Part shown: positions 815 to 11,869 of the stretch, piece by piece
How positions within the stretch are numbered: the stretch's first letter is position 1
Layout of the letters: each line of letters starts with the position of its first letter
Assembly: GCA_965220055.1 (NCBI GenBank)
Contig: CBDCPE010000004.1
Span: 3,628,962 to 3,692,961 of the forward strand
Length of the DNA stretch: 64,000 bases
Source of the DNA: Dehalococcoidia bacterium
GTDB lineage: Bacteria; Chloroflexota; Dehalococcoidia; Lucifugimonadales; UBA3495
Reading direction: 5' to 3'
Program-made: the position numbers and the translations under genes
Notes under the pieces: model-generated
Databases searched by the model: none
What the model saw: only the letters and a program-made list of their open reading frames with translations
Told to the model about the DNA's origin: nothing

Positions 815-1780
815 TCAAACCGCAGGCAATCCATTGGCGATGGCGGCCGCTCGTGTCCAAGCAGACATGTCTGCCAGGGTCTGGGACGAAATTGTTTCGC
901 ATAACTCGATTACTCGCGACCGATCGAACAAAATGCCGGCGTACGTCGACCTCTTGTACCAACGGTCTTCGGGCAACTCATCCGTGATGAAAAACATACG
1001 GACCGGGTCAACTGCTGGCATGTTGTCGAACCAATTTTTACAAAACGCATCGGGCCTGAGCCTTGTGAATTGTTCTTCGTAGTGGGTACCGGTTTTACAT
1101 TGCCCGAATCCAATCAACTTGCCTTGTCTGTCGTCGTTGAACGGATTCCAGACCACCACATCAAGTCCATCATCTTTTGCTTGGGGATTGCCGCCCGATT
1201 TGTTTCGGTAGGTACTCCCTTCACCTATTTGCTGACAAAGCGCGTTCACGCGGTCTGAAAAACTTCGAGTATCACTGGCTGTACCGAACACCAAGCTTCG
1301 GGATCCGTCTCCGAAATATCGACTAGCGACCTCTGCACAAAGTTGCTCGAATAATTCAGTCCCATCAATGCCCGCATGCTTCTTGTTTAGGTTCATATCC
1401 AATCGGGTTGCCAAGAGCAAATATTTGTACACGGTTTGGCGAGGGTTGCCACCGCCCTGGCGCCATTGAAGTGAACTACCAGTGTGGTCCAACTCGAAAG
1501 GATACCCTGAACCGTACGCTTCCGTGCGTTCTTCGACGAGCTCGAATGCTTCCTTCACCCACTCATGCAATTCGTCGATTTCGAGAACGCCGTTTGCATG
1601 GTCGTTCTCTTCAGGTTTGGCTAGTTGGTTAGAGACGTGCCTATCGGACGCCATGCCACTTTGCCAAGATATGAGCTCACTGAAATCTGCGACGTCCAGT
1701 TGCCATGCCAGTAGTTCGTTGTAGTCTGCTTGGTCTTGGTCAGTCGGTCGAGCTGGAAGTTCCTTGGGCCATTTGAACAC
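815..1780 (-). CDS. Mrr-cat / PD-(D/E)xK-type restriction-endonuclease-like protein with an unassigned N-terminal domain (321 aa, GTG start)
   Basis: The C-terminal half carries ELFEQL ... DDGLDVVVW-x15-GFGQCKTG, a D...QxK nuclease signature like the Mrr catalytic domain. AGGTGA SD sits 12 nt after the upstream ParB-like stop. It is the third gene of a tight operon. Confidence 0.55.
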   Translation of the reverse strand: MFKWPKELPARPTDQDQADYNELLAWQLDVADFSELISWQSGMASDRHVSNQLAKPEENDHANGVLEIDELHEWVKEAFELVEERTEAYGSGYPFELDHTGSSLQWRQGGGNPRQTVYKYLLLATRLDMNLNKKHAGIDGTELFEQLCAEVASRYFGDGSRSLVFGTASDTRSFSDRVNALCQQIGEGSTYRNKSGGNPQAKDDGLDVVVWNPFNDDRQGKLIGFGQCKTGTHYEEQFTRLRPDAFCKNWFDNMPAVDPVRMFFITDELPEDRWYKRSTYAGILFDRSRVIELCETISSQTLADMSAWTRAAAIANGLPAV

Positions 1781-1792
1781 GGGTGGTCACCT

Positions 1793-2893
1793 CTACGTTC
1801 GCGCGGGCTGAGGCCTTGGTGAAGCGAATTGTTTGCGCACCATCTCTGCGTGAAGGTCCGTAGCTAAAGCGACGACTCCATCAGCAGTCGCGAGCAATTC
1901 GCCGGATCCGTCATACCCGTCTGATAGCATTGCCCGCGCCTCACGCAAGCTCTCCATGGCCGCGACCAAGGATTCCTCGAATCGATTAGTCGGGGGACGA
2001 CTCGCCGCAAACGCCGCTTGGAGGTTGCTCGTATTGCGTAGACTAGCTACCGCCGACCGATTTCCCAGTACTGCGTCCAATTGACGGAGGTGCGGGTTCT
2101 GGGATCGTATGATGGGACGTGCATCCTTGCGCTTACTACCGTATAACCATAGGCATAGTTCACCAAGTTCCGTTCGTTTTTCCGAAGGGACAGGCTCCGG
2201 GTCCTCCGCTTCCTCTGAGGTCAGTCCGATATACGAACTGATGCCAGGATAATCTAGTCCCGTATAAAGATGGGAGAATGAAAAATGTCGGTGCCACCGG
2301 TCTTCGCGGCGAAAAACCTCCCAATCCTCAGCTTGTTCGATAACCTTCAGCCCACGAAAAAGCCTCTGGACCGTGTTGTGGTTGTCGCCAATCTGCTGCG
2401 CGATCTGTACCAACGAGACGTTGAAGGTTTGGTTGACCGAAGCGACGTATCGTGCTTTTGCGTAGCTGCCCCACTTAGCTGGACCGTTGACGTGTTTGAA
2501 ACCGAGAAACCTCCAGGTGTCTTCTCGCGTATCTATCAGACAAGGTAGGCGGTTCAGCCCATCAAGTAGGTCGGCCGCAATCGTCGGGATATTGGCTTTC
2601 ACCTGCCGGGCGACGGCGGGATCCCTGATTGCCTTGACTGCTGCCAGCCGACGGTTTCCTTCGATAACGACAAATTTGCCTGACTCCTCAACCACGATTA
2701 GAGGCTCGTGCCGGAAGAACCCGCTGGCCGTGATGGACATCACTAATTCCTGCACATCTTCCGTTTCCCACAGAATCTTGATGATGTCCATTTCGTTTTG
2801 GATCGGCGAGTCGAAAAATTCGGCAAGCCTCGGATTTTTCACGTCGAACTCGAGTTGGTCGACGTCGATGTCGGTAACCGTTTGCGTAGTCAT
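1793..2893 (-). CDS. ParB/Srx N-terminal-domain protein with HTH-like segment (about 366 aa)
   Basis: VIEGNRRLAAVKAI arginine patch at the position of ParB box II (GERRxRA). A later HTH-like stretch reads VSLVQIAQQIGDNHNTVQRLFRGLKV. The start ATG overlaps the MTase stop (ATGA at 2890-2893). I chose internal Met MTTQTV rather than the ORF-track Met at 2950. Confidence 0.7.
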   Translation of the reverse strand: MTTQTVTDIDVDQLEFDVKNPRLAEFFDSPIQNEMDIIKILWETEDVQELVMSITASGFFRHEPLIVVEESGKFVVIEGNRRLAAVKAIRDPAVARQVKANIPTIAADLLDGLNRLPCLIDTREDTWRFLGFKHVNGPAKWGSYAKARYVASVNQTFNVSLVQIAQQIGDNHNTVQRLFRGLKVIEQAEDWEVFRREDRWHRHFSFSHLYTGLDYPGISSYIGLTSEEAEDPEPVPSEKRTELGELCLWLYGSKRKDARPIIRSQNPHLRQLDAVLGNRSAVASLRNTSNLQAAFAASRPPTNRFEESLVAAMESLREARAMLSDGYDGSGELLATADGVVALATDLHAEMVRKQFASPRPQPART

Positions 2894-3792
2894 GGCGTTT
2901 GCACCATCTGTTGGTTGGGTATTGGCTCGGGACCGCAGGATGAGACCCATGCGGACGGGCGTTGCACGTAAGGTGGCGTAATCAGCAGTTCGTACGTTTT
3001 CTTCTTCTGTTGCAAGCTATACTGCAAACCGATATCCGAGATATTGCAGTCGGCGTAGAGCCCTCTGATGAGTTGGGAGTCATCGTATGAGGCTACCCAT
3101 CGGACCGATTGCTGTCGCCGCAAGTACCGAGCGAGTTTGCCGTGGTCTTTTGTGTCGTAATCGTTCAAATACAGGCGACTCCCCTTCGAGACGTAAGGTG
3201 GATCCAAATACACGAAGACCTGCTTGCGGCGGTTCCCTTTAGGAAGGTGGGTAGTCAAGAATCGCAACGCGTCGTCATTGGTAACCTGGATTCGGTCTCG
3301 TTGTTCAGCAACTCGGACGATTCGTTCAGCGAGAGCTTTACGGTTGAAACGCGCATCCATGCGCCACGTTCCGGTCTGGGAATATCCGCCTATCGGTGCC
3401 GAACCGAGCAGGATGCCAGAGCGATTGCACCGGTTCAAATAAAACGTGGCAAATCCGAGATCGAACGTGCTATGCCGGGTTGGTTGTAGGCAGATTTCTT
3501 TTTGCTTTCGCCATTGGTTTACGTTCAATTCAACCGACATGATCGCATCGGCAAATCGTTCATGTTCGCTGAGAATAGCCTGCCAGAACGCGTAAATCCT
3601 CGGGTCGAGATCGTTCAGCAGTAACTCAGAAACCACGCCCTCGCGCAAAAGCCGAAGGGCTGCTCCGGCTCCGCCTGCAAACGGTTCGAAGTATCTACAT
3701 TCGCTGAGACCGTTGGTTTCTATGAAACAACCCAATAGACCGGCCAGCGAACCCTTACCTCCCGGATAACGTAAAGGGCTAAACGCTCTCAT
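2890..3792 (-). CDS. Dam-family (D12 class) N6-adenine DNA methyltransferase
   Basis: N-terminal LRYPGGK. Motif I is FEPFAGGAGAA and motif IV is LDPPYV. The 300-aa size is typical of Dam/DpnIIA-type enzymes. Confidence 0.85.
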   Translation of the reverse strand: MRAFSPLRYPGGKGSLAGLLGCFIETNGLSECRYFEPFAGGAGAALRLLREGVVSELLLNDLDPRIYAFWQAILSEHERFADAIMSVELNVNQWRKQKEICLQPTRHSTFDLGFATFYLNRCNRSGILLGSAPIGGYSQTGTWRMDARFNRKALAERIVRVAEQRDRIQVTNDDALRFLTTHLPKGNRRKQVFVYLDPPYVSKGSRLYLNDYDTKDHGKLARYLRRQQSVRWVASYDDSQLIRGLYADCNISDIGLQYSLQQKKKTYELLITPPYVQRPSAWVSSCGPEPIPNQQMVQTP

Positions 3793-3929
3793 GCCAGCTC
3801 GCCTTTGCCGTACTAATTGAGGTCATTCTACTCGAATTCAATTGGAAGCAACAAAGACTGCCAGGCTCTCGGGAACCTGGTCTGGCCTGTAACGCGGGAC
3901 ACGATTTTGCGGGCGCTACCTAACAACCC

Positions 3930-4083
3930 CCGAGCCGTGGCGCTGCCCACCGGCGCCACGTAGTTGCGATTGGAGCCGAACGGCGAGTCCAGATAAATGA
4001 GGTAGACCGACGCGGAATTGATGCCGCACAAGATGTCCAGGTTGTCCCCTGTCCAGATGGTTCGATCGGCAGAATTGGTCATG
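3930..4083 (-). pseudogene. N-terminal fragment of a beta-class (N4/N6, PF01555-like) DNA methyltransferase
   Basis: MTNSADRTIWTGDNLDILCGINSASVYLIYLDSPFGSNRNY matches the GDxL...IYxDPPF-NSxxNY N-terminus of these MTases. Similarity stops after about 50 aa. Confidence 0.55.
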
Positions 4084-4110
4084 GGAAAATGCCAACTGGA
4101 CAGTCGAGCG

Positions 4111-4139
4111 ATGGCAGACTTTACTACAAAGTCTGCCAT
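4111..4139. repeat. Hairpin repeat, copy 2 (atggcagacttt / aaagtctgccat, 12-bp stem)
   Basis: Perfect inverted repeat with the same stem as 636-664. Confidence 0.6.
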
Positions 4140-4205
4140 TTTCCGCACCTGAGGGCGAAATCTGAGCAACACGGTGAGCGGGAACCGAACCAAATCGCCC
4201 GCCGA

Positions 4206-4234
4206 ATGGCAGAGTTGCTAATGAAATCTGCCAT
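4206..4234. repeat. Hairpin repeat, copy 3 (degenerate; atggcaga ... tctgccat)
   Basis: 8-bp stem with a longer loop. Shares the atggcaga/tctgccat core with the other copies. Confidence 0.35.
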
Positions 4235-4384
4235 GCGACTAATTGGCCCAAATGTTGCGCTAACCCCGGTCGGCCATACGGGTTTGTGGAGTTACCTAGC
4301 GGAAGATTGGTATTCGGCAACGACCACAGCTCATTGCCGATCCAGCTCCACAACAGGAGCTTGTAAACCCCCGCGCTGTGATTG

Positions 4385-4650
4385 CCTAACCACCCGTCCA
4401 ATTTCGCCCGGATCGCTATGGAGTTGCTGCTCTCTCGCCATTCGGAGGCAGTTATCCATATCGAGTAGGTATTGAGTACGGCGCGGGGCATGATGTGGTC
4501 CACTTCGAGCACTCGGAACGGAAACTCGATGCCGCAGGCGTCGCAACGACCCTCCTGGTGACCAAGCGGCGTGTGCTTGTGCTGGTGGCAGGGCACCAGC
4601 GCGTCGATGTTGGTACGTTGGGATGTCAGCAGTCGCGGATTGACACCTGG
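4385..4650 (-). pseudogene. HNH endonuclease remnant (frameshifted, 5' end cut by the IS derivative)
   Basis: CHQHKHTPLGHQEGRCDACGIEFPFRVLEVDHIMPRA reads as an HNH core. The expected downstream DN..LLC..CN..K part is only recoverable by changing frame. Confidence 0.4.
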
Positions 4651-5303
4651 CAGGGTGTTGAAAATGGCGGTGTGATGACTGAATGGGACCATATCCAGTG
4701 GGGAGGGTTGCCCGTAACGCAAGGCAGCGCAACAGGTCACCATGCTCGCGGCGGTTACGCTGGATGCCCTGGCTCCCAAAGGTCACTCCATTCGGCGTAT
4801 CAAGCCCATGGTGGATAAGGCCCTGAACCAGTTGTTCCCGACCTTCAACCGGATGTGCGCCGACCACGGTCGAGCGTCGATACCGCCGGAGCACCTCCTG
4901 AAAGCCGGCCTGCTGATGGCGCTGTTCTCGGTGCGCACCGCCCGGCATGAGGGGTACCGCTTGAGCCAGCGGGCGCGCAAACGGATTGAAGAAGTCTTCG
5001 GCTGGGTGAAGACGGTTGGCGGCGGTAGGATGTTACGGTACTGCGGGGTCGCCCGCAATCGGCTGTGGACGGAATTGACCTAGCGAGCTACAACCTGGTG
5101 CGGCTGGCCAAATTGACGGCGGTGGCGGCGTAGAACAAGGGACAAGTCTGTCCCGATCACCGCCGACAACGCCTAACCTTCGGAAATCGGCCTCCTGGCA
5201 GCGTCAACTAACCCTTTTCAGCCGTGAACCGTGCGCAAATGGACGGTGCAGAGGCGACAGAACATCCCTACGCGGCCATCACGCTACCCATTTCAACAGC
5301 CCG
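4651..5303 (+). mobile_element. Internally deleted IS5/IS1182-superfamily derivative (MITE-like, non-autonomous), copy 1
   Basis: Imperfect terminal IRs are cagggtgttgaaaat and catttcaacagcccg. The ORF joins a transposase N-terminus (HSIRRIKPMVDKAL...GRASIPPEHLLKAGLL) directly to a C-terminus (RKRIEEVFGWVKTVGGGR.LRYCGVARN). A second copy lies at 19343-20041. Confidence 0.7.
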
Positions 5304-5320: not shown

Positions 5321-6388
5321 CAATCAAGTATCCCTACCAAGTCCTTCATGGACTTCGCCATTGCGTCCCTGGGCTTCTGGGCCTTCGGGTTCGCCTTCAT
5401 GCTGGGCGACACCGCCAGCGGCATCATCGGCCTGACCGGCTGGTTCCTCACCAGCGGCGACTACGTGGGCTGGATCTTCCAGATGGTCTTCGCCGCCACC
5501 GCCGCCACCATCGTGGCCGGCGCCATGGCCGAGCGCACCAGGCTGCAAACCTACCTGGCCTACAGCTTCATCGTCTCCGCGCTGATCTACCCCATCTACG
5601 GGCACTGGGTCTGGGGCGGCGGTTGGCTCGCCGACATGGGCGCCCTGGACTATGCCGGTTCCGGAGTGGTGCACGCGGTTGGCGGCTTCGTTGCCCTGGC
5701 CGGCGCAGCCGTGGTGGGTCCGCGCATGGGCAAGTTCATCAACGGGCGGGCGCAGGAGATGCCGGCGCACAGCACGCCCTTCGTGGTCGCCGGCACCTTC
5801 ATCCTGTTCTTCGGCTGGTTCGGCTTCAACATCGGCTGGGGTGACGATATCGGCCTCAACGCGGTCAACACCCTGCTGTCCGGCGCCACCGGCGCGGTCG
5901 TCGCGATGTACATCACGCTGATCGTCAAGGGCAAGGCCGACATCCTGATGGCGTGCAACGGCGCGCTGGCCGGCCTGGTAGGCATCACCGCTCCGGTGAA
6001 CTTCGTCGACCCCTGGGCCGCCGTGGTGATCGGCGCCATCGCGGCGCCCATCATGTACGGTTCCGTGATGCTCATGGAGCGCGTCCTGAAGATCGACGAC
6101 CCGGTGGGCGCCATCAGCGTGCACGGCGTGACCGGTCTGTGGGGATTGCTCGCCATCGCCATCTTCGCCAAGGACGGTGGCCTGGTCGGCGGCAGCGCGG
6201 GGCTGTTCGTTCCCCAGATCGTGAGCATCGTCGCGGTGGTCGCCTGGTCGCTGGTCACCGGTTTCGGCCTGTTCTACCTGCTGAAGTTCACGATGGGCAT
6301 CCGGGTGAGCGAGGCCGAGGAACTGCAGGGCCTGGACATCTCCGAGCACGGCATCCAGACCTACCCCGAATCGGCCGCCACCAGCTAA
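5321..6388 (+). pseudogene. Ammonium transporter (Amt family), 5'-truncated by the IS derivative
   Basis: Amt motifs are present (GHWVWGGGWL, AGSGVVH, FGWFGFN, ISVHGV.G.WG). The frame is open back to 5321 and reads ..TKSFMDFAIASLGFWAFGF, so about 45 N-terminal residues (first TM) are missing. The IS end lies at 5303. Confidence 0.8.
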
Positions 6389-6465: not shown

Positions 6466-6729
6466 CCGATCTCACCGGCCCGTTTTCGGGGGCTCACTGG
6501 GCTTTTTCGGGGGCTCAACAGGGTGTTTTAGGTGGCTCGATTTTGGTGGATCTGGGCGATCTCACCGGTCTGTTTTCGGGGGCTCACTGGGCTTTTTCGG
6601 GGGCTCAACAGGGTGTTTTAGGTGGCTCGATTTTGGTGGATCTGGGCGATCTCACCGGTCTGTTTTCGGGGGCTCACTGGGCTTTTTCGGGGGCTCAACA
6701 GGGTGTTTTAGGTGGCTCGATTTTGGCGG
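6466..6729. repeat. Tandem repeat, 90-bp unit, about 2.9 copies
   Basis: Units at 6466-6555, 6556-6645 and 6646-6729. Copies 2 and 3 are essentially identical. The unit contains the internal sub-repeat ttttcgggggctca twice. Confidence 0.9.
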
Positions 6730-6775
6730 ATGGGGCCGCGCCCGCCGGGACCAGTCAGTGCGTCGATGGTGCAGG

Positions 6776-7006: not shown

Positions 7007-7389
7007 CTGGCCGACCTCCCAGTGGAATCTGAGCGACCGGTCGCTCCGACGAATTATCCAGCAAAGCTCAAGCCCGTGCAGTCTGGCTGACAGATACTCA
7101 TTCGGCCAGACCCGGAACTGGCTGCCTGGAGGATCTGACTTGGATCCGGAGGTTCATTCGTCTGTGATACGGCGAAATCGGCGAACCTCGATGGCGGGTT
7201 TTCGGGCTGTCGACCGTCGTCATGTACTGTCAGCCACACCATTCGACGGGGCTCAACTGTTCCTACTTGATGATCGCCGTATCGAAAAGTTATGATGGGC
7301 TCCCATCTGTTCCCTCATCGCCGCAAATATACCCATCAAGTCCACAGCTTTCGCCCAGGCCACCGGCACTGCGCGGTTACATCGCCATT

Positions 7390-8256
7390 ATGCATAGCCT
7401 TAACTATCCTGAACTGCGTTCTTGGCTGGTTGAAAAGGCGTCTCAGAACGGTAACTACCGACATCTGTGTCTCGTGGAGGACACTGGTCGCCGACAGGAG
7501 GCCATTGACGTTCTCAAAAGGATCGTTAATGACGCACATGCGGACGCCAAACGTCACCTATTTCGGCTGACCGCCACTAATTTGGACCCCCTTGGAGCCA
7601 CGTCGTCCGACTCCGTCGCCCACGCCTATCCCGGCTCACTGCATCTAACCACACGAAAGGCATACTTCGGTGAGATCATGGCCGGGATCGTGGCCGAAAA
7701 CTTCGTGCGGACGCCGCCTGGCCAATGGCGTGTACCAGCATTTTTGTTCAGGCATCATGAGTTGGCATTTGACCAGCTGGAGAGGGCACGTACGTCAGGA
7801 CAGCCCCCCGACCACGTCTTTGGCCAGACCGGGGACGACTGTCTGGCGTTTAGTACAGGACCAGAGGGTTTTGTAACGGCTTCGCTCGTCGGTGAAGCGA
7901 AATGTACAAACGACCATGATGCTTCGATGCTTGGAGCCGCTCATTGCAAAGTCAATTCAGTCGAGCCACGACCATTAAGCCTCAGCCGAGTCATTCGCAT
8001 CCTTAGCGATCAAAGCGGCGACTCTGAAGCAGCCGATTGGGCCAACATGCTGCGAGAACTCTACTATCGCAAAAACCTGCGGGACTACAAACGAGCCGAC
8101 CTGGTCAGTTATACCTGCGGACGAAGCCCAGTACGGAGGGACAGTTGGGCCCGGACAGACGCGCCAGACCCAGTGTATAGTGCCGGCAGAGAGTTGGAAT
8201 GCGTAGAAATCCACCTTTCCAACGTGGACGGTTTGGTGGACGAGATCTACGCGTAA
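7390..8256 (+). CDS. HamA-like (DUF1837-like) PD-(D/E)xK effector candidate, 288 aa
   Basis: Carries FGEIMAGIVAENF and then GDDCLAF-x14-LVGEAKC (E...D...ExK). Size and position immediately upstream of an SF2 helicase match Hachiman HamA. The start is uncertain (ORF is open from 7222; Met at 7390 chosen). Confidence 0.5.
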   Translation: MHSLNYPELRSWLVEKASQNGNYRHLCLVEDTGRRQEAIDVLKRIVNDAHADAKRHLFRLTATNLDPLGATSSDSVAHAYPGSLHLTTRKAYFGEIMAGIVAENFVRTPPGQWRVPAFLFRHHELAFDQLERARTSGQPPDHVFGQTGDDCLAFSTGPEGFVTASLVGEAKCTNDHDASMLGAAHCKVNSVEPRPLSLSRVIRILSDQSGDSEAADWANMLRELYYRKNLRDYKRADLVSYTCGRSPVRRDSWARTDAPDPVYSAGRELECVEIHLSNVDGLVDEIYA

Positions 8257-8278
8257 GAAGTTCAGTGGGGAGGCCATC

Positions 8279-11200
8279 ATGCCCGAACCTCATTCTTCTC
8301 CTCTAGCGCTGGCTCGTGACATTCAATTGCAATTAGGGGGTTGGGCATTAACGCCTGCCGTTGCCAAATTGTACAGTCAGTACACCCAGCTTACCGCCGG
8401 CAGACCTGGGGTGAACTTTTGGAGGCCAGGCGAGGCGAGCGAGCGACTTACAGACGCTGCGCATTTGATTGACTCGTCGTTCATCAAGAAGGACGCCGGA
8501 GATAGCGACTGGTACATCGGTATGAGGCGTGCCGGAGAAATTTTAGAATGGCTAAGTCATCCTCAGCTTGAACTCCGCGATGTTCCGACACGACTGCTGG
8601 CTGCCGCCGCGTATCAATTGGCCGGTTATCCAGCGATGGCTGCTAGTTTGCTGGACAGAACCTCTGCGACAAGCGACGAATCTCGCCTCCTGCCGGCATT
8701 GCTGAAAGGCGACTTTGCGGGATTGCTTGGTGGGTTGACTACGTTTTGGCAAGAGCGTCATTTTCAGGCATTGTCGCTCGCTAATGGTAATGGCGACACA
8801 ACCTCTGAACTCTTTGAGCCTGAGTTAGAGGATGTCCTGTTGGATCAAATAGCTAGTGCTTTAGGAGCATTGTGCGCAGAAGCACGTTGGGGAGGAGAAC
8901 AACGATTCGGCGACGCTCTAGAGCAACTTGCAAACATATGTGACTTCTATATGTACAGTGGTGACACGTACTCATGGCTTCTCAGTAGGCTGGTTTCCGA
9001 AACGGCCAAAAATTTGGGAGCACAGTTCATCCGGACTTGCCTAAATCCGCTTTTATACAACCTCGCACCTGGCGGGCAAAAGGCCCTTGAGTTATACGCC
9101 CGCAACGCGTATCAAAACCAAAGATCTGTGATTTGGCCTTCTCAGTCATTAGGCCTATCCCGTCTCAGGACCGGGGAGTCGTTTGCACTATGTACACCGA
9201 CCGGCTCTGGAAAAACTACAGTTGCGGAGATCGCGCTGCTCCAGTGTCTATTCGAAAACGGTTCGGTTGATCAAGAAGATAGCGACACTGCCGGAAACGC
9301 GCCTCTTGGAATGTATTTGGTACCCAGCAGGGCTCTTGCCGCAGAAGCTGAAGCCAAACTACATAGTATCTTGACAAGAGTTTCGTCAGGGGATGACCGG
9401 ATAACCGTCACTGGATTGTACGGCGGTACCGACTGGGGACCGACCGACGCGTGGCTTACGCGTGAAGGCAAAACCGTTCTCATTTGTACATACGAAAAAG
9501 CTGAGGCGATCTTGCGGTTCCTTGGCCCCCTGTTTCTAAACAGACTCAGGGTTGTGGTAATCGATGAAGCCCATTCGGTCGAGTTCAACGGCCGCGACGC
9601 CGAATTGCAAAATGGTGAGAGCCGACCTTTACGCCTAGAAGCTCTTGGTGCCAGGTTGCTCACGCATATTTCCGAGAACAATACCAAAGTCATCGCCTTA
9701 TCAGCCGTAGCCGGGGGAATAGACGATACCCTAGCAAGCTGGGTTAGAGGGAGTAAATCCAAGGCCGATACCAGCGATTACCGAAGTACTCGCCAACTGA
9801 TTGGGAGGCTAGAGTGCCTTCCGGGTAGGAGATCTGACATCCGTTATGACCTGCTGGACGGAACAAGGCTCACATTCAGAGAGCAAGGTAGGGACGATAG
9901 TCCGTACATTAGTGATGCATTGCCACCTCATCCACCAGCCTCCAAATTAGAAAACGGTGGCCCGGAAAAACGGCTGCGCCCGCATCTCTTCTGGGCTGCG
10001 CTTAATTTCGTAGGCTCGGCGGAAACTTCAGGGAATGCGACAGTTCTGATATTTGTACCACAGCAGATTGGTGGTTATGCAGAAGACTTTATTTCTCTAT
10101 TGGAACGGGAATGGTCGGGTGCTGTTCTCCCGTCATTCTTTGAGCCCCCGACAGAGGGTGACAAGGCGGTCCTTTGGACGCGTTGCTTGAACACATGTGC
10201 AGACTACTTCACGACGGCTTCTAGAGAGTATCGTTTGCTTGAGAAAGGCATTGTCGTACATCACGGCAGAATGCCGCGGCTCCTGTCCCGTCTCTTTGTA
10301 GAAGTCATAGAACAACGGATCTCCAATATTGTGTTAGCAACCTCGACGCTGGCAGAGGGTGTCAACTTACCGTTTGAAGTGTTGTTGGTGCCTAGTTTGA
10401 GGCGCGGCCAGACAGACATCTCAGCGAGAGAGCTAAAAAACCTAGTCGGCAGGACTGGTCGTCCTGGTGTCGCCACGGAAGGCAGAACCTTGGTCCTACT
10501 CAGTAACCCAGCTACTGATTGGTCTTCTACCCAAGCTCGTAATAGATATGAAAACATTATAGGGTCGCTTGCTGCTGACCTGAATACCCTGCAAAACGGA
10601 TATTTTGGCCTCAGCCCTCTCGCTCAGTTGCTCATTCAACTGAGGGATCAGTGGGAGCAACTCGACCGTCGCGGCAACATCTCATTCTTCGAATGGTTAG
10701 AACACACTAGGCCATTAGATGAACCTTTACATTCCGACCCGGCGGTGGAATCGCTAGATGTACTCGACTCGATCTTGGTGTCTACGATAGTGGAACTCGA
10801 GCACTTGACTGAGGATAGAACAGCACCTGAAAACCTAGAAGACCGGTTACGTAAAATATGGCAGCGAACCTATGCCCGTTACGCCTCTGTGCGCGAAGAG
10901 GAACTCTCATCCATCTTCGTAAGACGGGGTAGAGCCATTCAGGATAATGTCTACACTGAGCAGGAATACCGACGGAGGCTTTACAAGACGAGCATGCCGC
11001 CTAGGTCAGCATCTATGTTGATTGCCTTATCTGCGGATGTCAGGAACCGACTTAGTGCCGGAGAGTTCTATAGGGCATGGTCGAAGATCAATCAGTTTAA
11101 CTTCATCAGGTCGCTTGTGGAATTGGTGCGAACACATCCACGTTTCAGTATCCCCGAGACTTTGGGAAAGGGAAAGAACGCACCAACCTGGGATCAAATA

Positions 11201-11869
11201 CTTCGATGGTGGCTTGATCCTCAAGGTTGCCGGAAGAAGCCTAACGGCACTCAAGTGTCAGGTTGGTACAATTTCGTATCACAAAACTTCGATTATAGGT
11301 TCAATTGGGGGTTGTCTAGCGTACTGTCCTTAGCGATAGACGAAGTTACGGTAGACTCGTCCGAACCCCTCAGTCTGGAACAATGGCCATTGACGGGCCT
11401 TCCTTGGATATCATTTTGGATCAAGGAACTGATCATTTGGGGTACGCTAGATCCCGTGGTGGCCTTTTTACTGTCTAGGCGCATCGTGTGGACGCGGCGA
11501 GAGGCTGAGGAATTAGCGCAACGTTATTATGTGCAGACGTTGTCTGCTGACCCTAACGAGCAACTTGACCCGTCCGCAATCCGTCACTGGACTGATAGGA
11601 TATCCGCAACTGTTGAGTCGGGCAAGGCGCGACCATCTCCTGCAACTTATCCCGTGGAATTGCTACGTGATTTTTCACATTCAAAGCAATCTCAATGGAG
11701 AGTGATCCCCCTTAGAGCCTCCGACGCTCTTGTTTGGCTGGACCCGGCTGGATTCCCGTTGGCAAAATCGCCTAATCCTACCGAATGGTCCCATGAATGG
11801 TCCGAGAACTATGACTTCTTGCTGTTTAGCGAACAGAAGCTAGTTCGGTCTGTTTTTTATCTTTCGTAG
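8279..11869 (+). CDS. Ski2/Hel308-like SF2 DEAH helicase, 1196 aa (HamB-like)
   Basis: Walker A CTPTGSGKT is at about aa 305 and DEAH (VVIDEAHSV) at about aa 429. Also present are ALSAV, HHGRMP...LATSTLAEGVNLP and GRTGRPG at about aa 724. GGGAGG SD precedes the start. About 290 aa N-terminal and about 460 aa C-terminal are unassigned. Confidence 0.8.
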   Translation: MPEPHSSPLALARDIQLQLGGWALTPAVAKLYSQYTQLTAGRPGVNFWRPGEASERLTDAAHLIDSSFIKKDAGDSDWYIGMRRAGEILEWLSHPQLELRDVPTRLLAAAAYQLAGYPAMAASLLDRTSATSDESRLLPALLKGDFAGLLGGLTTFWQERHFQALSLANGNGDTTSELFEPELEDVLLDQIASALGALCAEARWGGEQRFGDALEQLANICDFYMYSGDTYSWLLSRLVSETAKNLGAQFIRTCLNPLLYNLAPGGQKALELYARNAYQNQRSVIWPSQSLGLSRLRTGESFALCTPTGSGKTTVAEIALLQCLFENGSVDQEDSDTAGNAPLGMYLVPSRALAAEAEAKLHSILTRVSSGDDRITVTGLYGGTDWGPTDAWLTREGKTVLICTYEKAEAILRFLGPLFLNRLRVVVIDEAHSVEFNGRDAELQNGESRPLRLEALGARLLTHISENNTKVIALSAVAGGIDDTLASWVRGSKSKADTSDYRSTRQLIGRLECLPGRRSDIRYDLLDGTRLTFREQGRDDSPYISDALPPHPPASKLENGGPEKRLRPHLFWAALNFVGSAETSGNATVLIFVPQQIGGYAEDFISLLEREWSGAVLPSFFEPPTEGDKAVLWTRCLNTCADYFTTASREYRLLEKGIVVHHGRMPRLLSRLFVEVIEQRISNIVLATSTLAEGVNLPFEVLLVPSLRRGQTDISARELKNLVGRTGRPGVATEGRTLVLLSNPATDWSSTQARNRYENIIGSLAADLNTLQNGYFGLSPLAQLLIQLRDQWEQLDRRGNISFFEWLEHTRPLDEPLHSDPAVESLDVLDSILVSTIVELEHLTEDRTAPENLEDRLRKIWQRTYARYASVREEELSSIFVRRGRAIQDNVYTEQEYRRRLYKTSMPPRSASMLIALSADVRNRLSAGEFYRAWSKINQFNFIRSLVELVRTHPRFSIPETLGKGKNAPTWDQILRWWLDPQGCRKKPNGTQVSGWYNFVSQNFDYRFNWGLSSVLSLAIDEVTVDSSEPLSLEQWPLTGLPWISFWIKELIIWGTLDPVVAFLLSRRIVWTRREAEELAQRYYVQTLSADPNEQLDPSAIRHWTDRISATVESGKARPSPATYPVELLRDFSHSKQSQWRVIPLRASDALVWLDPAGFPLAKSPNPTEWSHEWSENYDFLLFSEQKLVRSVFYLS

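Follow-up and report, generated by a model that had tools for sequence, protein, structure and literature searches.

A three-gene module of methylase, ParB-fold protein and nuclease-like protein in a Dehalococcoidia bacterium is related to the defence system PD-λ-5

What is the role of a ParB-fold protein encoded between a DNA methylase and a nuclease-like protein? The question is raised by three minus-strand genes at positions 815-3792 of a 64,000-nucleotide (nt) stretch of DNA from a Dehalococcoidia bacterium (contig CBDCPE010000004.1, positions 3,628,962 to 3,692,961), hereafter called the window. The initial annotation saw the logic of restriction-modification (R-M) in these genes, with a middle component that belonged to no defence system it could name. 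Genes 1 and 2 are homologous to parts of a system that has a name: PD-λ-5, a validated defence system described as 'ParB/HEPN, methyltransferase' (Vassallo et al. 2022, Nat Microbiol; PMC9519451). The trio is an offshoot of this validated system, not a new category, and is widespread and strikingly conserved. In the reading we prefer, and which we regard as evenly poised, the module is a three-gene methylation-linked restriction-type defence, sister to PD-λ-5.

The three open reading frames (ORFs) were confirmed in the sequence. Gene 1 (2890-3792, 300 amino acid residues, aa) is predicted to encode a D12-class (Dam-like) N6-adenine DNA methyltransferase, gene 2 (1793-2893, 366 aa) a ParB-fold protein and gene 3 (815-1780, 321 aa, GTG start) a nuclease-like protein. 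The TGA of gene 1 (2892-2890) shares bases with the ATG of gene 2 (2893-2891) in an ATGA overlap at 2890-2893 on the minus strand ('...ACG CCA TGA CTA CG'). The longest ORF of gene 2 reaches an upstream ATG at 2950; the start at 2893 is favoured because the homologues measure 366-368 aa and begin at the same methionine. The stop codon of gene 2 (TAG, 1795-1793) is followed by GAGGTGAccaccc up to the GTG of gene 3 at 1780. Most of a GAGGTGA Shine-Dalgarno sequence lies inside this 12-nt spacer (1781-1792, minus strand); it begins with the final base of the gene 2 stop codon, and the GTG of gene 3 is located 6 nt past it. The packing of the three genes, the ATGA overlap and the spacer with its Shine-Dalgarno sequence thus stand as initially annotated, and the five motifs quoted there (FEPFAGGAG, DPPY, EGNRRLAAV, DDGLDVVVW and GFGQCKTG) are all in place. 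A scan of the operon, uninformative for a Dehalococcoidia-like host, detected terminators at the level of chance and no promoter of the sigma-70 type.

Conservation of the trio as a unit had been set beforehand as a test of its coherence. A genome scan with one genome per species returned 177 stretches with a relative of gene 3, and the locus counts in this text refer to the best 80 of these 177. Their hosts are Dehalococcoidia and other Chloroflexota, Binatia, Latescibacterota, Alpha- and Gammaproteobacteria, Spirochaetia, Acidobacteriota, Rhodothermales, Nitrospirales, Verrucomicrobia and others, and the same trio was present on contigs coding for gene 3 homologues. In 75 of the 80 loci a gene 2 homologue immediately preceded gene 3, a recurrence that we take as more than chance, and in another three it was present but displaced; gene 3 stood at a contig end in one locus and was truly solo in one (L065). 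A close D12 methylase was encoded upstream on the same strand in 45 loci. A second D12 family (14 loci, divergently oriented in six of them) shares about 28% identity with the methylase of the window and 44-96% among its own members, and has PD-Lambda-5_B, the methylase model of PD-λ-5, as its best match (1e-45). Together, a full-length methylase of the PD-Lambda-5_B type is linked in 59/80 loci (45 close plus 14 of the second family). Five loci contained only methylase fragments and 16 yielded no D12 methylase, namely 14 with an intact gene 2/gene 3 pair and the contig-end and solo loci mentioned above. With the adjacency of genes 2 and 3 in 75/80 and the methylase in 59/80 genomes, the trio is a conserved unit.

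The junctions are tight as well. A 1-nt overlap joins genes 2 and 3 in 57 of 70 loci, and the distance between them is at most 12 nt in 66 of 70; for genes 1 and 2, the distance in other loci is typically -4 to about +30 nt. The decay of the methylase is correlated with that of the pair: an intact methylase was accompanied by an intact pair in 57/59 loci and a methylase fragment by a broken pair in 3/5, and all 14 pairs that have no methylase were intact. The nearest relative of the module, with 96-99% identity, was found in a Dehalococcoidia metagenome-assembled genome (MAG; CBDCYO010000001.1, locus L009, 6001-6966). There, gene 3 carries a nonsense codon at Q200, just ahead of the DDGLD motif, and the genes for the methylase and the ParB-like protein are intact; the window copy of gene 3 is intact. 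Most of the 80 loci encode a ParB-like protein with 51-63% identity despite distant phyla and a widely differing guanine-cytosine (GC) content of the hosts. Such wide similarity across phyla would point to extensive horizontal transfer of the module. Half of the methylase-less intact pairs (7/14) come from Alphaproteobacteria MAGs. Several MAG names (RHO, STY, 'bin75/bin80') resemble those of sponge-metagenome bins, a putative habitat.

Gene 1 matched the Pfam family MethyltransfD12 over its full length (6.6e-17), in line with the Dam-class assignment made initially, with a score below the cut-off for bona fide Dam proteins (52.8 vs 114.85 bits). Its best PADLOC match was PD-Lambda-5_B (PDLC04018, 1.1e-100), in which residues 3-280 aligned to profile positions 4-277 of 291. 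The protein is 41% identical to the methylase of a two-gene PD-λ-5 locus of the canonical type, carried by a Kosakonia plasmid. It carries sequences that correspond to both the S-adenosylmethionine (AdoMet) motif I, FEPFAGGAG (residues 35-43, 3664-3690), and the catalytic motif IV, DPPY (residues 197-200, 3193-3204), on the minus strand, as expected of a methylase from a type II R-M system. Judged by its sequence, gene 1 affiliates with the D12-class N6-adenine methylases of the PD-Lambda-5_B family.

Gene 2 was modelled with AlphaFold2 (AF2) at a mean predicted local distance difference test (pLDDT) score of 87. Three regions were recognized: an N-terminal ParB/Srx domain (about residues 5-150; AF2 model, Foldseek and hhalign), a helix-turn-helix (HTH) DNA-binding domain (about residues 143-190; AF2 model and Foldseek) and a helical C-terminal region (about residues 200-355; AF2 model) that resembles nothing known. 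In Foldseek searches the model matched the N-domain and HTH of Noc, KorB and ParB with E values of 1.6e-6 to 1e-4, a probability of 1.0 and 240-290 aligned columns. The matches include ParB, Noc and KorB structures bound to cytidine diphosphate (CDP) or CTPγS; the targets were truncated proteins, with both domains covered. Pfam returned ParB_N (4.7e-4) and the phage protein families PHROG 3694 (3.6e-79), and a sequence search of the PDB only Spo0J and SbnI, around Box II. This box, or P-motif, is represented by EGNRRLAAV (residues 78-86, 2636-2662, minus strand), and HMMER paired VIEGNRRLAAV with the Box II 'LIAGERRLRA' of Spo0J from H. pylori (4umk). The initial description of gene 2, a ParB/Srx domain that bears an arginine patch at Box II and precedes an HTH, is borne out by these alignments. 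The HTH segment LVQIAQQIGDNHNTVQRLFRGLKVIEQAE (residues 161-189, 2327-2413, minus strand) corresponds to AF2 helices 161-168 and 172-190.

The gene 2 family is unusually conserved, with a mean column identity of 72% across phyla. E78, G79, N80 and R81 of Box II are invariant and R82 is nearly so; the other invariant positions include D17, N20-P21-R22, K133-H134, N136-G137, K140-W141 and much of the HTH. Gene 2 shares the N-terminal ParB/Srx fold, the Box II arginines and the subsequent HTH with the ParB, Noc and KorB clamps that switch on cytidine triphosphate (CTP). In contrast to these clamps, it has GNRR for GERR in Box II, GFKHVNG..KW for the ENLQR of Box III and a different C-terminal half.

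The N-terminal domain is what ties gene 2 to PD-λ-5. About 25 PD-Lambda-5_A models of PADLOC matched gene 2, all over the first ~170 profile positions only, or about 34% of the model. An hhalign comparison of the gene 2 family with an alignment of 40 PD-Lambda-5_A proteins gave a probability of 98.7% and 33% identity, confined to residues 5-150, and the EGNRR signature is also invariant in PD-Lambda-5_A. By these alignments the N-domain is of the PD-Lambda-5_A subtype, and the HEPN half of that protein is absent. A HEPN-like C-terminus in gene 2 was considered and is unsupported, the homology to PD-Lambda-5_A stopping at about residue 150; an R196-x6-H203 pattern spotted by eye falls in a mostly non-helical part of the AF2 model.

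Both systems therefore share a D12 methylase of one family, adjacent to a ParB-fold gene, and one subtype of ParB/Srx N-domain with the signatures D..NPR and EGNRR. They differ in several respects. PD-λ-5 consists of two genes and its A protein is 430-500 aa long with a C-terminal HEPN half, whereas the 366-aa product of gene 2 in the window has an HTH and a C-terminus of helical structure, and gene 2 is coupled to a third, nuclease-like gene that has no similarity to PD-Lambda-5_A. The methylase comes first in the window, while the Kosakonia example has the order A then B. By these comparisons the trio is a three-gene variant of PD-λ-5 and not the named system itself. The claim that no nameable defence system contains such a part nevertheless falls, given the full-length match to PD-Lambda-5_B and the PD-Lambda-5_A subtype of the ParB domain, and ParB-fold NTPases recur in defence, with GmrSD, DndB and DpdB as examples (PMC12839542).

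Gene 3 had been annotated as an Mrr-cat nuclease with a PD-(D/E)xK signature. A conserved D...QxK motif on a predicted core was confirmed, and membership of that family was not supported. The AF2 model (pLDDT 82.6, predicted template modelling score 0.85) consists of a winged-helix-like N-domain built of helices and a β-hairpin (about residues 20-126) and an α/β C-domain (about residues 140-290). The order of elements in the latter is helix (140-155), strand (161-164), helix (174-185), strand (208-212), strand (221-229), helix (243-250) and strand (260-265), with a predicted core of α-β-β-β-α-β. The putative catalytic residues are E145 (1346-1348), D203 and D207 of DDGLDVVVW (residues 203-211, within 1148-1174) and Q227-x-K229 of GFGQCKTG (residues 224-231, within 1088-1111), all on the minus strand. 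In the model the first helix carries E145, D207 opens the second strand and Q227-x-K229 closes the third, an arrangement canonical for a PD-(D/E)xK site. Among 125 representatives at 27-45% identity (totals out of 126), E145 was conserved in 123/126, D203 and D207 in 126/126 each, Q227 in 125/126 and K229 in 118/126.

As for the Mrr-cat layout, the D...QxK motif is conserved within the gene 3 family, and the winged-helix matches of the N-domain are local and weak (E2F-DP, cullin WHB, Cdt1 and Stn1; target-normalised TM 0.5-0.67, E>0.3). Membership in Mrr-cat was rejected: Pfam searches with 46 family members gave no match to any model including nucleases, Mrr_cat (PF04471) was missing at E<=1, and the hhalign probability against EcoKMrr was 0.3%. 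The origin of gene 3 as a detached C-terminal half of PD-Lambda-5_A was likewise rejected, as BLASTP and hhalign found nothing. Gene 3 itself had no match in Pfam, NCBIfam or PADLOC and only chance matches in a sequence search of the PDB; it matched PHROGs 14650 and 3984. Whole-model Foldseek searches against the PDB returned mostly PD-(D/E)xK nucleases (VC1899, FokI, Can2, Card1, MspI and Bse634I), which were non-significant with a best E value of 0.043, and six of the top 20 entries in BFVD were labelled 'restriction endonuclease', again non-significant (best E 0.012). From the model, gene 3 is a probable PD-(D/E)xK nuclease outside Mrr-cat. The family is large: a word-indexed search gave 909 matches and an exhaustive search 2,346 clusters at 50% identity, and the best 150 of these clusters are all stand-alone proteins, most of about 300-340 aa.

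More distant versions of the module were found in a phage, in Vibrio and on plasmids. In the P2-like phage Wphi (AY135739, 96-3266), gp98 is homologous to gene 2 over its full length (hhalign 99.9%, 314 columns, 31% identity) and gp96 is homologous to gene 3 (hhalign 96.7%). The genes of gp98 and gp96 overlap and a DNA methylase is adjacent; unlike that of the window, this methylase (Mth) is a C5-cytosine enzyme and is encoded convergently on the opposite strand. No report on the function of gp96 or gp98 was found in the literature searched. In Vibrio campbellii (NZ_CP050465, 3754-8109), an integrase gene precedes a ParB-like gene (372 aa) and a gene 3 homologue of 338 aa, and a D12 methylase with 35% identity to that of the window is encoded convergently. 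The gene 3 homologue of Vibrio reads 'QVA' for 'QCK', and the lysine of the putative site would not be universal. The PADLOC candidate PDC-M38A (715 aa) aligns through its N-terminal ~340 positions with most of the gene 2 family, including the region after the ParB domain. It differs in a further ~350 aa that have no counterpart in gene 3, which had no PADLOC match, and PDC-M38 is an unvalidated candidate. The picture is that of a ParB-fold 'sensor' scaffold, usually together with a methylase, that bears differing effectors.

How could the three proteins work together? In the restriction-type defence that we prefer, the D12 methylase would mark adenines of the host and thereby self DNA. The gene 2 protein would be the DNA-sensing subunit, binding DNA via its HTH, with the ParB/Srx nucleotide-binding domain probably acting as a switch, and would form a fixed complex with the gene 3 protein, whose PD-(D/E)xK-type C-domain may then cut DNA that lacks the mark. 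Relative to PD-λ-5, the fused HEPN effector would be replaced by an HTH, a helical extension and a separate winged-helix/nuclease gene, and the module would act against phages. The 1-nt overlap of genes 2 and 3 in 57/70 loci fits a stoichiometric complex. The low-GC DNA beside a Hachiman-like pair is a defence-like context and counts in favour of this reading, as do the conservation of the trio, the correlated decay of methylase and pair, and the versions in Wphi and Vibrio, which appear to keep the same logic with other arrangements of the methylase.

A number of observations weigh against it. Intact genes 2 and 3 occur in 14/80 loci that have no D12 methylase within about 6 kb, and none of the pairs on plasmids of Persicobacter, Neorhizobium and Mesorhizobium adjoins a D12 methylase. 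One would not expect a classical restriction enzyme to persist once its methylase is missing, unless the latter is encoded elsewhere. In contrast to classical type II R-M, the cognate methylase is not always linked here (D12 in 59/80 loci, N6_N4 in one and intact pairs with no D12 within that distance in 14), which weakens the 'obligate' R-M logic of the initial annotation. Ten upstream ORFs were scanned in loci that have no D12 methylase: six had no Pfam match, three looked like unrelated genes of housekeeping type and the remaining one was an N6_N4 methylase. Further, the HTH is near-invariant across loci regardless of the family of the linked methylase, and no gene 2 column discriminated loci of methylase family 1 from those of family 2, giving no sign of co-varying sequence specificity. 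With the same HTH in all loci, the two methylase families set one and the same mark, or else the methylation site is not what the HTH reads. PD-λ-5, the known relative, has a HEPN effector and is read as partly abortive, which speaks against strict R-M. Finally, the nuclease fold of gene 3 is drawn from the model and the conserved residues, with no significant match in Foldseek, Pfam or the PDB, and K229 is replaced by A in 7/126 representatives, by G in gp96 of Wphi and by A in Vibrio.

The methylase-less loci were also considered for an alternative first gene, a candidate that was rejected: the ORFs had no Pfam match and only one pair, from two alphaproteobacterial genomes, was alike. They are probably spurious ORFs or unrelated genes.

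A more specific form of the restriction-type reading, which we put forward tentatively and consider rather unlikely, treats gene 2 as a nucleotide-gated DNA clamp. The HTH would load at an unmethylated site, binding of a nucleoside triphosphate (NTP) would close the clamp via the GNRR domain, and sliding or spreading would license the winged-helix/PD-(D/E)xK partner to cut. If true, the long-range communication that ATP drives in Type I/III enzymes would have its counterpart in a ParB switch, and one ParB sensor would have been reused with HEPN in PD-λ-5, with the extension of PDC-M38A and with gene 3. For proteins that adopt the ParB-CTPase fold, neither sequence nor AlphaFold3 predicts the nucleotide specificity, and a survey of the fold listed many fusions to methyltransferases and HNH nucleases (PMC12704722).

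Among the rival explanations, the one that survives best is modelled on PD-λ-5 and combines R-M parts with abortive infection. Here, the gene 2/gene 3 pair would act as a toxin-like effector triggered by infection (by a phage product, DNA structures or loss of methylation) with no site-specific restriction, and the methylase would serve as a safety or regulatory partner. It draws on the ParB N-domain and methylase being of the same families as in PD-λ-5, on the lack of co-variation of the ParB-like protein with the methylase family and on effectors that seem interchangeable on the ParB scaffold, namely HEPN in PD-λ-5, the 350-aa extension in PDC-M38A and gene 3. However, the effector as modelled resembles a DNase with a DNA-binding winged helix and not a HEPN RNase, and the methylase-first order with its start/stop overlap is typical of R-M operons. 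We judge this explanation unlikely. No description of the mechanism of PD-λ-5 was found in the literature searched.

Improbable in our view is a self-contained restriction module of genes 2 and 3 that depends on modification (Type IV-like) or is independent of the methylase, comparable to GmrSD/SspE/BrxU or Mrr, with the methylase as a frequent but separable neighbour of other role. The intactness of all 14 pairs that have no linked methylase would be explained in this way, as would the distant plasmid-borne pairs, which are not flanked by a D12 methylase. GmrSD is built on the same principle of combining a ParB-fold NTPase with a nuclease, and GmrSD, SspE and BrxU likewise couple a nucleotide-binding domain of the ParB/Srx fold to a DNA endonuclease in defence (PMC12839542). 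A winged helix with PD-(D/E)xK is moreover the layout of Mrr. Yet the GmrSD group consists of single polypeptides with DUF262 (DGQQR-type) and HNH/DUF1524 that are modification-dependent and lack a methylase, whereas the window encodes two proteins, with a GNRR-type ParB domain plus HTH and a PD-(D/E)xK-like partner, and a linked methylase. Pfam searches of the module proteins gave no signal for DUF262, DUF1524 or Mrr_cat. Against this module also speak the same methylase superfamily in 59/80 loci, usually translationally coupled to gene 2, and the methylase fragments that accompany broken pairs; a nuclease dependent on N6-methyladenine beside a methylase that makes this mark would be self-destructive.

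The case that the initial annotation had set against its own reading, gene 2 as a partition protein of a plasmid or integrative and conjugative element or as a KorB-type transcriptional regulator functionally unrelated to its neighbours, is most improbable and is rejected on context: its best structural matches are indeed ParB, Noc and KorB and one distant homologue carries the NCBI label 'ParB/RepB/Spo0J family partition protein', but no ParA-like gene was found in the first 12 kb of the window (as initially noted), gene 2 is coupled with the genes for a methylase and a nuclease-like protein and recurs at chromosomal loci in many phyla, almost always overlapped by the same nuclease-like gene, these loci are not beside replication or conjugation genes, the C-terminal half is unlike the ParB dimerisation domain at the sequence level, and the N-domain is of the PD-λ-5 defence subtype.

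No description of this trio was found in the literature or libraries searched. Three features of the three-gene form are new: the ParB domain continues into an HTH and a helical tail, the nuclease-like protein is encoded separately and belongs to no Pfam family, and HEPN is lacking. PD-λ-5 is among the broadest-acting systems of the E. coli functional screen, in which its broad phage protection was recorded in an mrr-deleted host strain (PMC9519451). Its core of methylase and ParB domain also exists as the much more widespread three-gene form described here. The latter offers a natural comparison for the role of the ParB fold in defence, be it nucleotide switch, clamp or enzyme, and, as the ParB-CTPase fold was recently found in wide use beyond chromosome segregation, adds a defined case of such reuse that can be tested. 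It would also provide an annotation for several thousand 'hypothetical' proteins, including gp96 and gp98 of Wphi.

The surroundings of the module agree with the initial description of an AT-richer segment among defence genes. The GC content is 0.530 in 815-3792 and 0.624 in 12000-64000 of the window. A Hachiman-like pair (7222-11869, plus strand) is located 3.4 kb from the module in a second low-GC stretch (GC 0.52). Its DEAD-box helicase of 1196 aa matches HamB models (2e-59), and the 344-aa protein encoded upstream shows a weak match to HamA (DUF1837, 1e-4) and none to Pfam. An ORF between the module and this pair (4742-5083, plus strand) is a transposase fragment with weak matches to DDE transposases (0.003). 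No tRNA integration site was detected within 1-16 kb of the window. Gene remnants occupy 3828-5083, between the module and a backbone gene, and the sequence 'VYLIYLDSPFGSNRNY' in the ORF 3828-4193 (minus strand), an ORF with no Pfam match, looks by eye like motif IV of an N6/N4 methylase. A 90-bp tandem repeat (2.9 copies, 98% identity, internal sub-period of 22 bp) was observed at 6467-6731, placed between a high-GC transporter-like gene (5348-6388) and the Hachiman-like island.

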